64,000 nucleotides of DNA from a virus. The stretch lies in the IMG/VR virus record IMGVR_UViG_3300037067_026753; one strand, given 5' to 3'. Positions 40,755-49,675 of the stretch are shown here, one piece after another (position 1 is the first letter of the stretch; each line of letters opens with the position of its first letter). Under the pieces are notes generated by a model. The model was not told where the DNA came from and ran no database searches. It saw nothing but the letters and a program-made list of their open reading frames with translations. The translations under genes and the position numbers were made by a program.

Positions 40755-42302
40755 ATGCAGTCTTTAAGTCTTGCTATAATAATGAAAGACGTAGAAAAAA
40801 CTTTACAAAAATGCTTAGATTCTGCTGCTCCTGTTGTTGATGAAATTATAGTAGTAGATACTGGTTCCACAGATAGATCAAAAGAAATTGCATTACAATA
40901 TACTTCTAAAGTTTATGATTTCCCCTGGATAGATGACTTTTCTGCTGCTCGAAATTTTTCTTTTGATTTATGCACAAAAGAGTATATATTTTGGATTGAT
41001 GCTGATGATGAAATTCTTAAAAAAGATCAAGAGAAAATAAAAAATCTTGATTTATCTGACAAAGAAATAGTGTTATGTCAGTATCAATATTCTCATGATC
41101 AGTTTGGTGTTCCCGAATGCACTCTTGAGCGAGAAAGAATTATTAAACGTTCTCTTGGGCTTAAATGGGAAAAACCCATTCATGAATATTTGCCCATTTC
41201 TGGAAAAAAAATTTCTAGACAAGATATTGAAATACATCATTGGAAACAACATGGTACATCAGAAAGAAATTTGAAGATATTAGAAAGAATTATTCAAAAA
41301 GATCCTGATTCTAGAAATTTCTATTATCTCGGAAAAGAATATGCCGATTTTGGAAGATTTGAAGAAGCTATTGAAACTCTTGAAAAATTTGTTACTATGA
41401 AAGGCTGGTGGGAAGACGTATTCTGTGCTCATGATACTATTGCTAAATGTTATCTTGTTCTTAAAAATGAAAAAAAGTTTTTTGAGAATATTTTTCGTTC
41501 AATAGAGATAGAGCCCAGAAGAGCTGAACCATACTTTGAACTTGGTGATTATTACTTCTCAAAAAACGATTGGGGAAAAGCTGCTCATTATTTTGATATT
41601 TGCCTGAATGTAAAAAGACCCAAAGAATTAATGTCAACATATTATCCTCAAAATTATACATGGCGACCAGCACTCATGGCAACACAAGCTTATAATAATT
41701 TAGGTGCTGTGCAGACAGCTTTTGAACGTAGTAAATTGTTTTTAAAATACAGGCCAAATGACCAATTAGCTATAAACAATTACAATTGCCTGTTGAATAG
41801 TTCTTTACGTTTTGTCAAGAAAGATGGACAAAGCAAGAAGCTTAATCTAGGTTGTGGAAATAAAAGAATTGAAGGTTATATAAATGTTGATATAGTCAAG
41901 ATACCCGAAGTTGATGAAGTTTTTAATTTCTATGAAATACCTTATCAAGATAATACGATTTCAACTATTTCAAGCGAACATGCATTAGAGCATGTATCAG
42001 CTGACAAAGCAAAACAAGCTATAAAAGAATGGTTTAGAGTTCTTGAGCCTGGTGGTAAATTAGAGCTCTATATTCCCGATCTTGAGTTATGTGCTAAGGG
42101 TTATGTAGAAGGCGACAATAGTCGTACTATTAATGGGTTTAAAGAAAAAAATTGGTATAAAATGACTTTGTATGGCGCACAAAGACCCGAGAATGGAAGT
42201 GATGCTGAACATCAATTTCATTTAAATGGTTTTTCAAAAGATGAAATCAAAGAATTACTTGAAGAAGCAGGGTTCATAATAACTCATCTAAGGAATTACT
42301 GA
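40755..42302 (+). CDS. TPR-associated GT2 glycosyltransferase fused to TPR repeats and a C-terminal class I SAM methyltransferase domain.
   Basis: LSLAIIMKDVEKTLQKCLDS..IIVVDTGSTDRS..FPWIDDFSAARNFSFDL..IDADDE is paralogous to module 4 of the 1273-aa glycosyltransferase. The C-terminus carries LNLGCGNKRIEGYINVDI...LEPGGKLELYIPD (Methyltransf_11-like). Confidence 0.7.
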   Translation: MQSLSLAIIMKDVEKTLQKCLDSAAPVVDEIIVVDTGSTDRSKEIALQYTSKVYDFPWIDDFSAARNFSFDLCTKEYIFWIDADDEILKKDQEKIKNLDLSDKEIVLCQYQYSHDQFGVPECTLERERIIKRSLGLKWEKPIHEYLPISGKKISRQDIEIHHWKQHGTSERNLKILERIIQKDPDSRNFYYLGKEYADFGRFEEAIETLEKFVTMKGWWEDVFCAHDTIAKCYLVLKNEKKFFENIFRSIEIEPRRAEPYFELGDYYFSKNDWGKAAHYFDICLNVKRPKELMSTYYPQNYTWRPALMATQAYNNLGAVQTAFERSKLFLKYRPNDQLAINNYNCLLNSSLRFVKKDGQSKKLNLGCGNKRIEGYINVDIVKIPEVDEVFNFYEIPYQDNTISTISSEHALEHVSADKAKQAIKEWFRVLEPGGKLELYIPDLELCAKGYVEGDNSRTINGFKEKNWYKMTLYGAQRPENGSDAEHQFHLNGFSKDEIKELLEEAGFIITHLRNY

Positions 42303-42508
42303 TGTCAGACAGAACAACATGTTTAACCGTCGTCCTTGACAATGATTTTCGTATTGATGACATAGACAGCATTCTAAATGCAATTAGAATGATTAAAGGT
42401 GTTGCAGAAGTTAAAGCAAATGTTTCTAACCCTGAAGAATTTACTGCTTATATAAGAGCAAAAATGAGTCTTGAGAAAAAATTATGGGAAGCATTGAAAG
42501 ATGAATAG
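42302..42508 (+). CDS. Small hypothetical protein.
   Basis: A 68-aa ORF, translationally coupled. Confidence 0.3.
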   Translation: MSDRTTCLTVVLDNDFRIDDIDSILNAIRMIKGVAEVKANVSNPEEFTAYIRAKMSLEKKLWEALKDE

Positions 42509-47473: not shown

Positions 47474-48051
47474 CAAGAAAAGACATTCCTGAATTTCTAA
47501 ACCAAAAAGAACTTATAGGTTATGGTGCCGAAATTGGTGTCTTGCGTGGTGAATTTTCAAAACACATATTAGAAAAATGGAAGGGTAAAAAGCTTTATTT
47601 AATTGATTCTTGGCGATATTCAAAAGACATTGTTGATTTGAACAATTTTGAATTTAAAGAACAACTCGAAAATTATTCGAAAACTTTTTCTAATATTTAT
47701 AGTTTTGGTGATAGAGCAACAATCATAAGAGAGTTCTCAAGAGAAGCCTCAAGATTGTTTCCTGATAATTATTTTGATTTTGTGTTTTTAGATGCAAGAC
47801 ATGATTTTGAGAATGTAACAATAGATTTAGAATCATGGTATCCTAAAGTGAAACCTGATGGTTATTTGATGGGCCATGATTATTTAGATAATATAACAAA
47901 GGTTGGTGGTGATATAGTTTTTAGTACAAAATTTGAAGTTAAATCCGCTGTAGATATTTTTGCTTTTGTAAGGAATTTAGAAGTTTATGTAATCGAAGAC
48001 AAAAGCGATCCGTTTTATCCATCTTGGTATATCAAGAAACTTACTGCTTGA
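47467..48051 (+). CDS. Class I SAM O-methyltransferase (TylF/MycF-like), paralog of 17520..18077.
   Basis: IGYGAEIGVLRGEFSKHIL...FDFVFLDARHDF...DGYLMGHDY. Confidence 0.55.
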   Translation: MLTRKDIPEFLNQKELIGYGAEIGVLRGEFSKHILEKWKGKKLYLIDSWRYSKDIVDLNNFEFKEQLENYSKTFSNIYSFGDRATIIREFSREASRLFPDNYFDFVFLDARHDFENVTIDLESWYPKVKPDGYLMGHDYLDNITKVGGDIVFSTKFEVKSAVDIFAFVRNLEVYVIEDKSDPFYPSWYIKKLTA

Positions 48052-49675
48052 ATCTTTCAAGAACTTTTTCAATTACTTCTTCTTCTGTCGGTAAATAAAA
48101 ATCCCAATTTTGTTTTATAAGTTCTGCTGTCGCTCCACCTTCAATCCATGTTGTAGGTCTTTGATCGCAATCATCAAGTGTAAGTTTCTTATATAGAGCA
48201 TCAGCTTTATGATAAGGCGTAATATAACCTTCGGATGTTTTTCTAAAAGGTAATACATGATCTGGATGTTTGCATGTTGGCATTATTATGATCCAATTGT
48301 CGAATGCCCCAGCTAAATGTATTGGAACAGAATCATTAGATAATAAAACAGGTGCTCTTGAGATAGCTGAAATTAGAACACCAACAGATGTTCTGTCTAT
48401 GAGACTGATAGAATTAGAAGGAAGTTCAAGTTGATATGCGCCTCGATTTTCATGATCATCTGTTCCAATTAAACATACAGGAATTTCTTTAGAGATACCA
48501 TCTACAACTTTTTGCCACCATTCGATAGGAAATGTTTTGCTTTCCCAATGTCTTCCTGGATGAACAATTACAGCTTTTCTAAGATCAAAACCTTTAAGTA
48601 TTTCATCTAATTCATCATCATCTTCTTTTGTTGTTTGTATTTTGATAATTTTTTCTTGTAGGGGTAATACTCTTTGTAGAGAAGCAATAGAACAATAATC
48701 TACTGTATGACAGAGTAAATTCGAAATAATAGAATAAACTACTGTTTTTGGATCTGGGAAAGTTTTTATTTGAAAAAAGGGTTGAAAAATCGAAGGGTTG
48801 AAATCATCATGATGTATTATTTTATATTTCAAATGCTTGAAAAGCCTTGGCCAATGTGTTGTAATAATTATTTCTGTTGTATTATCTTTGTAGACTTTTT
48901 CAAGAAATCTTAATGTCGGTTCAGCATCTACTTGATCGCCCATTCCCCCAGAAACCACAATAACTATATTTCGTTTATAATTATATTCGGGTTTGTCGTT
49001 TTCCCATTTTTCAAGATCTCCCTTAATTATTGATAAAATCTCATTATTTACTGTAAAATAATGATAACCAGCATAATGTATAATAAATGAACTATGTCTT
49101 GTTTCTCCACAAAAATCCAGACATGTCATTCGGTTAAGTTTGTATGGTAAATCATACATGAGTGAATTTTCTTCTTTTCTTTTACCTTCTTCAATTGCGA
49201 ATTTTAAATTGAGATACCCTTGTTCATAAAAGTTTGAAATTTCTTTTTCAGGTTTTTTAAAAAAGAATTTATGACACTTTGAAATAACTAAAACACCAGT
49301 ATTATAATATTTTCCATTCCAGTTTATTTTCTCAGGGTTAATATCATAACTCTTGCAAGCTTCAATTAATGAGTACTCTCTTGGTACAAATTTAGCTTCG
49401 TTGAAAGCACCTATTTTGTTATAAGGCACTATATCAAAAAGATCAGGACAATCATCTCTTACGATTAAATCCGTATCAAGATAAATTATTCTATCATAAG
49501 AATTCAAAAGATCGAATATTTGGAATTTTTCCCAATGTGGAGTCGTTTTGCATGAATCAATAACTATAAAATCAGCATTGATTTTTTTCGCGTATGATTG
49601 TAGAGTTGGATGCGTAAGTTTTGAGATATTTTTAATCTCATCCCCGATAGAAATAGCAATAAGAGCTTTTTTCAT
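48041..49675 (-). CDS. Two-domain glycosyltransferase: N-terminal GT8-like (DxD) and C-terminal GT9 heptosyltransferase-like.
   Basis: N-terminus: IAISIGDE...ADFIVID...RIIYLDTDLIVRDD (GT8 pattern). C-terminus: VIVHPGRHWESKTFPIEWWQKVVDGISKEIPVCLIGTDD...LLSNDSVPIHLAGAFDNWIIIMPT (GT9 motif). Confidence 0.6.
   Translation of the reverse strand: MKKALIAISIGDEIKNISKLTHPTLQSYAKKINADFIVIDSCKTTPHWEKFQIFDLLNSYDRIIYLDTDLIVRDDCPDLFDIVPYNKIGAFNEAKFVPREYSLIEACKSYDINPEKINWNGKYYNTGVLVISKCHKFFFKKPEKEISNFYEQGYLNLKFAIEEGKRKEENSLMYDLPYKLNRMTCLDFCGETRHSSFIIHYAGYHYFTVNNEILSIIKGDLEKWENDKPEYNYKRNIVIVVSGGMGDQVDAEPTLRFLEKVYKDNTTEIIITTHWPRLFKHLKYKIIHHDDFNPSIFQPFFQIKTFPDPKTVVYSIISNLLCHTVDYCSIASLQRVLPLQEKIIKIQTTKEDDDELDEILKGFDLRKAVIVHPGRHWESKTFPIEWWQKVVDGISKEIPVCLIGTDDHENRGAYQLELPSNSISLIDRTSVGVLISAISRAPVLLSNDSVPIHLAGAFDNWIIIMPTCKHPDHVLPFRKTSEGYITPYHKADALYKKLTLDDCDQRPTTWIEGGATAELIKQNWDFYLPTEEEVIEKVLERFKQ

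Follow-up and report, generated by a model that had tools for sequence, protein, structure and literature searches.

A mega-glycosyltransferase in one to four pieces: a putative protein-glycosylation island between the fibre genes of a huge phage related to Bacillus phage G

Island 2 is a cluster of glycosyltransferase (GT) and methyltransferase genes at positions 40755..49675 of a 64-kb stretch of viral DNA (IMG/VR record IMGVR_UViG_3300037067_026753), referred to here as the window. It is embedded within a structural gene block, between fibre genes, and contains six GT domains and two methyltransferase domains in total, interleaved with two HNH endonuclease genes. Judged by comparison with related loci, four of its open reading frames (ORFs), 40755-42302, 42501-42938, 44564-45772 and 46340-47473, are colinear fragments of one mega-glycosyltransferase with the domain order GT2-TPR-[methyltransferase]-GT-B-GT2-GT-B. 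By its gene content, the window covers structural genes of a huge tailed phage with kinship to Bacillus phage G. The ORF at 60950-61828 (minus strand) is the major head protein (PHROG 2522, 2e-67), with 48-50% full-length identity to gp27 of Bacillus phage G (497 kb) and to a protein of the uncultured huge phage LR745208 (485 kb), and further structural matches were obtained to a head-closure protein, a tail sheath and tail fibres. The original prediction that this is a glycosylation gene cluster of a phage is supported.

The island ORFs all exist where they had been proposed, and their domain calls were confirmed by Pfam, including HNH_3 in both interleaved endonucleases (Table 1). The first fragment contains Glycos_transf_2 (1.3e-18, residues 5-115), TPR (residues ~160-290) and Methyltransf_11/23 (8.8e-8, residues 376-511). 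These are the three modules named earlier, though their true order is GT2-TPR-methyltransferase and not TPR-GT2-methyltransferase. Its GT2 domain has the acidic motif DADD, while the second GT2 domain, in the third fragment (8.4e-19, residues 163-276), has an NSD motif, which is NDD or NND in some relatives. Both score above the Glycos_transf_2 cut-off (68 and 68.5 bits vs 23.3). Residues 49-149 of the third fragment give sub-threshold matches to GT-B C-domains. The fourth fragment is of GT4 type, with a Glycos_transf_1 score of 49.6 bits against a cut-off of 26.4 and an E-x7-E motif within FEETNCITAIEAQAAGLP.

Two further enzymes complete the island. The free-standing methyltransferase, 65% identical in the related locus L005, is probably a sugar O-methyltransferase from its sequence; a TylF-like assignment made previously could not be sustained, as it matches Methyltransf_24 only, with no TylF among the Pfam matches and no NCBIfam or PDB match. 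The convergent bifunctional enzyme exceeds the Glyco_transf_8 cut-off in its first domain (39.3 bits vs 24.3, with only positions 79-165 of the 253 in the profile matched) and the Glyco_transf_9 cut-off in its second (37.7 bits vs 22, residues 352-464). The DXD motif of the GT8 domain (DTD) lies in YLDTDLIV, which aligns with YLDIDVLV of LgtC.

Table 1. Genes of island 2 and of its flanks (positions in the window; L005 and L011 are related loci).
Feature	Position	Strand	Basis or remark
Fragment 1, GT2-TPR-SAM methyltransferase, 515 aa	40755..42302	+	Pfam
68-aa ORF, no family match	42302..42508	+	At the joint between methyltransferase and GT-B N half
Fragment 2, predicted N-terminal Rossmann half of GT-B, free-standing, 145 aa	42501..42938	+	Single-chain homologs
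97-aa ORF within the GT-B split, no family match	42938..43231	+	Homologs at the same place in L005 and L011
230-aa ORF within the GT-B split, predicted all-helical	43231..43923	+	AF2 model, homologs
HNH-1, predicted free-standing HNH_3 homing-endonuclease gene, 201 aa	43965..44570	+	Pfam HNH_3, PHROG endonuclease families
Fragment 3, GT-B C half (residues 1-~155) and GT2 (residues 163-~390), 402 aa	44564..45772	+	Pfam, intact homologs
HNH-2, predicted free-standing HNH-AP2 homing-endonuclease gene, 193 aa	45769..46350	+	HNH_3, AP2, PHROG 99
Fragment 4, second GT-B (GT4-like), 377 aa	46340..47473	+	Pfam Glycos_transf_1, 4.2e-13
SAM methyltransferase, Methyltransf_24, 194 aa	47467..48051	+	Pfam, 2.7e-14
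Convergent bifunctional GT8 (residues ~1-215) and GT9 (residues ~235-544), 544 aa	48041..49675	-	Pfam
Collagen-like (GxT-GxQ)n proteins, 781 and 883 aa	32968-35313, 36601-39252	+	Pfam Collagen
RCC1-repeat proteins, one after each collagen-like gene	35322-36533, 39273-40508	+	Pfam RCC1
261-aa ORF, RCC1-repeat protein (50596-51831) and third collagen-like protein, 1187 aa (51843-55406)	49798..55406	-	Pfam, repeat composition

Relatives of the four fragments were collected by querying a protein database with an artificial fusion of the 145-aa and 402-aa ORFs, and by scanning IMG/VR with an alignment query, which returned 16 viral loci on contigs of 6-467 kb and one distant, GT2-only locus; a scan of GTDB species genomes and IMG/VR with a single-protein query found nothing. 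In three database proteins of 915-918 aa (P0022, P0026 and P0057), one chain runs from the 145-aa sequence through a 13-residue linker into the complete 402-aa sequence and on to the 377-aa GT4, and the two GT-B halves are contiguous also in P0020 and P0033. Proteins of ~775 aa (e.g. P0005, 65% identical) represent the 402-aa protein fused to the GT4 and end at the same C-terminal residues as the GT4 of the window. Proteins of 640-690 aa (P0075-P0113) represent GT2-TPR-methyltransferase joined to the 145-aa sequence, and stop at the same residue as the 145-aa ORF. All modules are found in a single ORF of 1,336-1,796 aa in eleven IMG/VR viral loci (L022-24, L026, L028-34), with Pfam identifying GT2, TPR, GT-B, GT2 and second GT-B in that order in three of these forms. 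The single-ORF forms have no internal methyltransferase, L022 carrying one at its C-terminus. The plus-strand GT ORFs of the window sum to 1,439 aa (515+145+402+377). Because the same modules occur in the same order as a single ORF in other viral contigs, the GT ORFs of the window are read as pieces of one enzyme, and the earlier view of them as shuffled modules is replaced by that of colinear fragments.

A census was made of the 120 best database hits, binned automatically by the modules present. The C half with GT2 and GT4 accounts for 47 hits and GT2-TPR-methyltransferase with the N half for 38. The C half with GT2 alone is genuine in about 20 (29 by automatic call, the remainder being distant GT2-only proteins, fragments or the intact P0033), while six of the 120 were called intact across the GT-B break, to which P0033 is added, its N half having fallen below the BLAST filter. 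From this census, the usual state of the family is two large polypeptides, each starting or ending with half a GT-B. In a crude neighbour-joining tree of the shared region, built without support values, fused and split forms are intermixed within the clade of the window. The occurrence of the same enzyme as one, two, three or four polypeptides appears to be new. The island gene order was assembled independently from four sources (an NCBI metagenome-assembled genome (MAG), a JGI metagenome, a Logan run and an ENA assembly), with the JGI and Logan copies base-identical to the window over 17.5 kb and 12.9 kb, and the layout is therefore no assembly artefact. The ORFs of all pieces are intact in the four assemblies, and independent gene callers yield the same genes on the public copies.

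One of the breaks lies inside a fold. It falls within the first GT-B, at the linker between its Rossmann domains, where about 13 linker residues are missing relative to the single-chain relatives. In each of the nine split loci that were examined, the N half closes with IEDA(F/Y/V/W)E(x) (IEDAFEV in the window), and the C half begins M..(Y/F).(W/F/G)GYGG in eight of the nine, slightly downstream in L007. A split GT-B at this position had been suggested as possible, and both P0022, P0026 and P0057 and a structural model bear it out: the 145-aa ORF and residues 1-155 of the 402-aa ORF are predicted to form one complete GT-B fold. The AlphaFold2 (AF2) model of the joined halves comprises two Rossmann domains (pLDDT 83.9, pTM 0.81), with low-confidence stretches of at least three residues confined to the N-terminal 13 residues and the artificial junction. 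Full-length Foldseek matches include HepE, GtfC, SdgB, TreT, BshA and Gtf3, with query-normalised TM values of 0.48-0.70 among the leading matches and a probability of 1.00 for the first five of these, and a sequence profile of the first GT-B matches BshA at 1.2e-7. The single-chain homologs pass the Glycos_transf_1 cut-off (55.6-65.4 bits), whereas the first GT-B of the window falls below it (17.9 bits vs 26.4). It is considered a GT-B of unassigned family because the EX7E motif is replaced by an invariant KSNNxxTQ, of which K214 and S215 are themselves invariant and the Q aligns with the second Glu of BshA.

GT-B enzymes made from two polypeptides are known from Alg14/Alg13 and from bacterial EpsE/EpsF, where the split is inherited by a large clade with occasional fusions (PMC8993221). 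The first GT-B of the window resembles these pairs in being broken between the N-terminal (acceptor) and C-terminal (nucleotide-sugar) Rossmann domains, with the halves as separate genes, and in the inheritance of the split state across a large clade with occasional fused forms. It differs from them in being GT4-type by fold and not MurG-like (GT1/GT28); MurG, Alg13 and Alg14 are absent from the 50 best Foldseek matches listed and from 27 profile matches, nearly all of which are GT4-type. It differs also in that its halves are usually fused to other catalytic domains and are separated by one to three unrelated genes. A GT4-like GT-B split in this manner, with other genes lodged between its halves and inherited across a large clade of huge phages, appears not to have been described before. 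The same applies to the attachment of each half to its own set of catalytic domains, through which the split fold would link two multi-enzyme chains.

The pieces are closely packed. From 40755 to 48051, starts overlap the preceding stops (TGATG, ATGAATAG, TAATG, TAATG, ATGTTAA, ATGA, an 11-nt overlap and ATGTTGA), with a 41-nt spacer before HNH-1 as the sole exception. The inserted ORFs share in this arrangement: the 68-aa ORF overlaps the upstream stop (TGATG) and the downstream start (ATGAATAG), the stop of HNH-1 overlaps the start of the next gene, and HNH-2 overlaps the GT2 stop with its start (ATGA) and the GT4 start with its last 11 nt. Overlapping stops and starts of this kind are associated with translational coupling (PMC2988022). 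A scan for promoters and terminators gave sites no more frequent than in shuffled sequence.

Two ways of restoring a continuous product were considered and rejected. Group I or group II introns are excluded, with no ribozyme match even at E<=1 and inserts filled by ORFs; no Rfam family was found in the window, in the island at E<=1 or in five related loci, no tRNA was found in the window, and the 567-nt gap at the HNH-2 site is entirely coding. A split intein is likewise rejected, as the fragment ends and starts lie only 0-2 residues away from the corresponding positions of the single-chain relatives.

All pieces are under purifying selection, as estimated from pairwise ratios of nonsynonymous to synonymous substitution (dN/dS) against L005, L009 and L011, where synonymous divergence is near saturation and the ratios are rough, though clearly well below 1. 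The GT and methyltransferase pieces range from 0.07 to 0.28 (0.11-0.17 for fragment 1, 0.07-0.20 for the N half, 0.14-0.24 for fragment 3 and 0.14-0.28 for fragment 4). The GT8-GT9 fusion, kept in L005 (75%) and L009 (67%), gives 0.09-0.17.

The three breaks were compared with related loci and with database proteins. Between the methyltransferase and the GT-B N half, relatives are continuous (...ENYDGWDTPS... in P0075), while the window reads ...RNY*, then the 68-aa ORF, then MNSYGTPS...; L018 has no insert there, and a 71-aa ORF of L009 is 34% identical to the 68-aa ORF. The gap inside the GT-B measures 716-1,625 nt and is occupied by different genes in different clades, with the 230-aa ORF always among them in the clade of the window. 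The window itself has here the 97-aa ORF (homologs 49% identical in L005 and 27-31%, depending on method, in L011), the 230-aa ORF and HNH-1. HNH-1 was added in the lineage of the window only; it is absent from this place in L005, L009, L011, L013, L017 and L018, and its relatives (42-51% identity) occupy other island joints in L011 and L019-21. As the breakpoint is invariant in nine loci, most without any HNH gene, the GT-B split was not caused by HNH-1.

The third break, between GT2 and the second GT-B, has a different history. L005 is continuous here (GSYENESKEVYHKEDQKNH), as is P0005, and the window reads ...GSYEKEFL*, then HNH-AP2, then MSNRYKEEDTSNH. Loci broken before the linker include the window, L009 (353-nt non-coding spacer), L017 (50 nt) and L018 (4-nt overlap), while those broken after it are L011 and L019-21, where an HNH-1-like gene occupies the gap, and L013 (3-nt gap). 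Since the break positions vary and fused and unfused forms are intermixed in the tree, this joint has been broken repeatedly. HNH-2 is absent from its window site in L005, L009, L013, L017 and L018, and may either have made the GT2/GT4 break or have moved into an existing one. It matches PHROG 99 at 4.9e-34 and AP2/ERF domains in the PDB down to 5.6e-13, and belongs to a large family (393 matches) in which the nearest relative is 50% identical over 53% of its length; no close copy pointing to recent movement was found among the 393. The spacer of L009 (8005..8357), which is the closest relative, lies at the same break and shows no HNH-2 similarity, no Rfam match and a fold z-score of -0.57, which rules it out as a recognisable endonuclease remnant or structured RNA.

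Both HNH genes are predicted to be selfish, free-standing homing endonucleases, and the related glycosylation islands appear to be general hot spots for such genes. Genes split by free-standing endonucleases, with products that reassemble, are known from T4-like phages (Aeh1 nrdA/mobE, T4 gene 39/60 with mobA, and gene 43 of Aeromonas phage 25, where the endonuclease, a seg gene, may have invaded a pre-existing break; PMC2988022). The window resembles these cases in that a gene contiguous in relatives is present as two ORFs with an HNH gene exactly in the gap and both products retained, shares with Aeh1 mobE the overlapping starts and stops, and shares with phage 25 gene 43 the possibility that the endonuclease entered an existing break. 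Unlike them, the target is a multidomain glycosyltransferase rather than an enzyme of replication or nucleotide metabolism, the breaks lie at domain linkers instead of a functionally critical region, and three breaks occur in one enzyme, with an endonuclease in some only. Mobile nucleases were also seen at the edges of related islands, namely a GIY-YIG (LEM-3-like) gene in L013 (20048..20818), and an HNH_3 gene in L011 (2920..3627) lies directly upstream of the GT2-TPR-methyltransferase gene.

No gene of the island is better conserved than the 230-aa ORF that lies between the GT-B halves. Its homologs, always in that position, are 83% identical in L005, 77% in L011, 70% in L009 and 50% in L013, surpassing the GT fragments in L005 (83% vs 65%) and L011, with dN/dS of 0.08-0.16. 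The family comprises 26 clusters only and has no match in Pfam, PHROG or NCBIfam. The AF2 model consists entirely of helices (pLDDT 74), and Foldseek with this model against the PDB returned no match below E 0.5. In L007 and L008 the same gap is filled by unrelated ORFs, to which a profile built from five homologs gave no match. The MAG that carries the island has another copy of the gene (PHF86_07585), with 74% identity. A strongly conserved helical protein in the GT-B gap, without family placement, appears to be a new finding.

The likely substrate is suggested by the relatives of the GT2-TPR module and by its neighbours. Its closest solved relatives are GmaR (2.5e-24; the Listeria flagellin O-GlcNAc transferase), a GT2-like domain protein (7msk, 4.1e-12) and SunS (3.4e-10). 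The best NCBIfam match is the SunS family, named peptide S-glycosyltransferase, at 52 bits against an equivalog cut-off of 350. As in GmaR and SunS/ThuS, fragment 1 places a TPR/helical substrate-binding region after a GT2 catalytic domain; it differs in having an extra methyltransferase domain and, in relatives, half a GT-B as well. No membrane segment was found in any island protein. The GmaR/SunS relatedness, the lack of membrane segments and the location in the structural block together argue for a soluble protein substrate.

The flanking genes offer candidates. Collagen-like genes lie on both sides of the island, each accompanied by a gene for an RCC1-repeat (beta-propeller) protein, and the three collagen/RCC1 sets are paralogous to one another. 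The trio of 261-aa ORF, RCC1 and collagen genes that follows the island is found also in L005. Across the three collagen-like proteins, Thr is found at about 33-41% of the Y positions of the collagen runs, which adds up to hundreds of such residues. Of 23 distinct related loci, 9-10 have collagen-like genes of this type no further than 6-10 kb from the enzyme, among them loci in which the enzyme is a single ORF, two pieces or four pieces. A conserved C-terminal tail, ...PPxPxGYPDxxxYxQY(V/I), is common to the collagen proteins, and the 1187-aa protein has a non-collagen domain of ~300 aa between two collagen blocks. A small DUF5659 protein (76-161 aa) was observed within a few kb of the enzyme in L005, L006, L011, L013, L017 and L018. 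The Gly-rich collagen and RCC1 genes outside the island carry a GC content of 0.44, which accounts for the step from 0.44 to 0.31 at the island edges, 0.31 being the norm elsewhere in the window.

Taken together, these features favour, with a probability of roughly 60%, the reading of island 2 as a cytoplasmic protein-glycosylation module of a huge phage, with a fragmented mega-enzyme at its core and the collagen-like fibres as its target. That the target is a protein or part of the virion of some kind is held with rather more confidence, whereas the chances are about even that the GT2-TPR module starts O-glycosylation of fibre proteins, with the other GTs extending the glycan and the methyltransferases methylating it. 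Under the proposed mechanism, the four pieces would be transcribed together, translationally coupled through their overlapping stops and starts, and would reassemble without covalent joining. The two GT-B halves would act like Alg14/Alg13, forming one active site and, in relatives, tethering two large polypeptides together. The GT2-TPR module would carry out the initiating O-glycosylation on Thr of the (GxT-GxQ)n collagen-like fibres encoded on both sides. Together with the mega-enzyme, the convergent GT8-GT9 and the Methyltransf_24 enzyme would make up a set sufficient for a methylated oligosaccharide. The HNH genes would have settled at tolerant domain joints and play no part in the chemistry.

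This arrangement has counterparts. In Clostridioides difficile, the GT-A enzyme SgtA, encoded beside bclA3, adds O-GlcNAc to Thr of the GPT collagen repeats of BclA3 (PMC7157674). The window has in common with SgtA/BclA3 and with BclA of Bacillus anthracis the Thr-rich Gly-X-Thr collagen repeats with a GT-A type glycosyltransferase encoded alongside, and departs from them in that its genes are viral, the repeats are GxT-GxQ and not GPT, and the enzyme set is much larger. Methylated sugars are known on BclA, and the island likewise has methyltransferases. According to the summary in PMC12619734, mycobacteriophages carry glycans on virion proteins (capsid and tail-tube C-termini) made by few, small GTs. 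On that summary the window is similar in having GT genes associated with virion structural proteins of a tailed phage, and differs in having collagen-like fibre genes as neighbours and, as its enzyme, a mega-GT in fragments. Beyond weak GT2 matches there is no sequence relationship in the phage collection, where tblastn of the 402-aa protein gave only these and megablast of the island against 50,697 phage records gave no match.

Several observations weigh against this reading. The GT-B halves were modelled as an artificial single chain, and the first GT-B has KSNN(R/K)xTQ in place of the EX7E of GT4 enzymes, so that its chemistry, and even its activity, are predictions from sequence and model. 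In 13-14 of the 23 related loci there is no collagen-like gene within the DNA fetched. In L008 the enzyme stands among non-structural genes (kinase, PP2C, ParB), and in L007 beside UDP-glucose dehydrogenase and an epimerase, which fits polysaccharide work as well. The dN/dS values average the time before and after the HNH-2 insertion, so that a very recent loss of function would be compatible with them. The GT2/GT4 break also occurs without an HNH gene in L009, L017 and L018, and the HNH genes are possible rather than established causes of a break.

The contexts in L007 and L008 lead to the alternative that the island remodels host cell-surface glycans (lipopolysaccharide (LPS) core, capsule or teichoic acid), for example in blocking superinfection, and leaves phage proteins unmodified. 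GT8, GT9 and GT4-type domains are indeed typical of LPS and polysaccharide pathways, and the original prediction had proposed a core-oligosaccharide-like glycan with heptose. The GT9 domain does not sustain that proposal, reaching 25.3 bits vs 185.3 for TIGR02193 (LPS heptosyltransferase I) and 18.9 vs 134.6 for TIGR02195, scores that do not support equivalence to the WaaC/WaaF enzymes with their ADP-heptose donor and LPS core acceptor, and the NCBIfam polysaccharide and LPS equivalogs all fall far below their cut-offs. Neither heptose-synthesis genes nor a lipid-carrier initiating transferase, flippase, polymerase or multi-pass membrane protein was seen in the window. With the GT2-TPR module nearest to protein and peptide glycosyltransferases and the island set between fibre genes, a role in the host envelope is considered unlikely.

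A different alternative concerns the HNH genes, which could have been domesticated, for instance driving recombination that shuffles GT modules between islands. One HNH family does occur at different joints in different relatives, and modules of island 2 have paralogs in island 1 (12026-19516), as had been noted earlier: the GT2-TPR module (29% identity over 333 aa, E 2e-30), the GT2 domain (26-28%, E 1e-19) and the Methyltransf_24 enzyme (41% over 54 aa, E 7e-12). This paralogy is distant, and because the paralogs are only 26-41% identical, the duplication is old rather than recent, and no recent exchange between the islands is indicated. Most relatives, moreover, have no HNH gene in the island, and HNH-2 has no close relative. 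In the NCBI MAG copy (L001, 9403..10010), the Lys/Gly-rich C-terminal tail of HNH-1 is frameshifted, giving 179 aa vs 201 and loss of the overlap with the next gene start, a population-level variant that also argues against a domesticated role, which is thus judged quite improbable compared with selfish endonucleases lodged in the island.

The same frameshift could be taken as local sequence instability, and so as a sign that the fragmentation is damage, insertions having inactivated the mega-enzyme and left the island decaying. Four fragments against one or two in relatives, and a first GT-B without EX7E, would fit such a course. Against it, each fragment retains an intact ORF, its ends lying directly at the homologous residues and provided with a new stop and start, the dN/dS values are low, identical sequence recurs in independent samples, and the GT-B split is common to dozens of diverged lineages with both halves conserved; decay is very improbable.

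A TPR module and sugar-type methyltransferases are not known as features of DNA-glycosylation systems, which counts against a role in glycosylating hypermodified, hydroxymethylated bases of the phage DNA to evade restriction. Although phage glycosyltransferases are often DNA-modifying and multi-sugar DNA hypermodification has been reported (reference cited in PMC12619734), this least probable of the alternatives is considered very unlikely, as neither a base-hydroxymethylase nor any related gene of nucleotide metabolism was seen in the window and both the location among structural genes and the GmaR/SunS relatedness oppose it.

Returning to the fibre-glycosylation module, its parts can be combined into a more elaborate proposal in which the split GT-B serves as an assembly joint, the 230-aa protein is an obligatory partner or regulator, a methylated glycan is placed on Thr-rich virion fibres, and the joints act as landing pads for homing endonucleases that re-cut the enzyme. 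As a whole this is tentative, and would more readily fail than hold.

Other observations concern the remainder of the window and its public copies. Island 1 holds a giant protein of 1273 aa (12026..15847, minus strand) with a different module order, GT2, GT2, GT-B, GT2, TPR. It is a second, unfragmented mega-glycosyltransferase, and after it come a GT4, two Methyltransf_24/CmcI-like enzymes, a GT-D-like protein and another methyltransferase. The gene at 17520-18077, paralogous to the Methyltransf_24 enzyme of island 2, weakly matches the rhamnosyl O-methyltransferase/CmcI family. Public matches to the island-1 GT4 lie on short contigs only, with the same contig-size classes as island-2 matches. 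Between the two islands, a 913-aa protein (20527..23268, minus strand) carries two CHB_HEX_C_1 (chitobiase/hexosaminidase C-terminal) and Fn3-associated domains, and a small HAD phosphatase (23261..23653, minus strand) matches the BT0820 family at 7e-18, below the cut-off; both may represent further sugar-related functions. Among tail and fibre genes, a 358-aa protein (9696..10772, minus strand) matches Pfam Volactin, an archaeal actin homolog, over the full profile at 2.9e-74, and has no PHROG match and no PDB sequence match.

Exact copies of the island proteins are encoded on public contigs, the longest of which has 424,144 bp. The contig JAQUND010000005.1 (GCA_028717785.1), which carries the island, is labelled at NCBI as a "Candidatus Nanoarchaeia" MAG, and because it encodes a phage-G-like head protein, tail sheath and tail fibres, this binning of the 424-kb contig is evidently wrong. 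NCBI thus files a contig with phage head and tail genes under Nanoarchaeia, an annotation error. As an alternative to a mis-binned huge phage, the host affiliation of this contig deserves a look.

For the enzyme family, the occurrence of the same four-GT enzyme as one to four polypeptides in related phages constitutes a natural experiment in enzyme modularity. Its breaks at domain linkers, one of them inside a fold, show where a GT-B has been cut and yet kept by selection, and offer split pairs for glyco-engineering. They also widen the range of genes split by homing endonucleases, from the replication enzymes of known cases to an accessory, putatively virion-decorating enzyme. Should the collagen-like fibres prove to be the substrate, the coating of collagen-like surface fibres with self-made glycans, as in giant eukaryotic viruses and spore-forming bacteria, would extend to huge phages, and if the reading with the split GT-B as assembly joint were true, Mimivirus fibrils and the BclA spore nap would have a counterpart in a bacterial virus. 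Fibre glycosylation, if true, would bear on the host recognition and environmental persistence of uncultivated phages.

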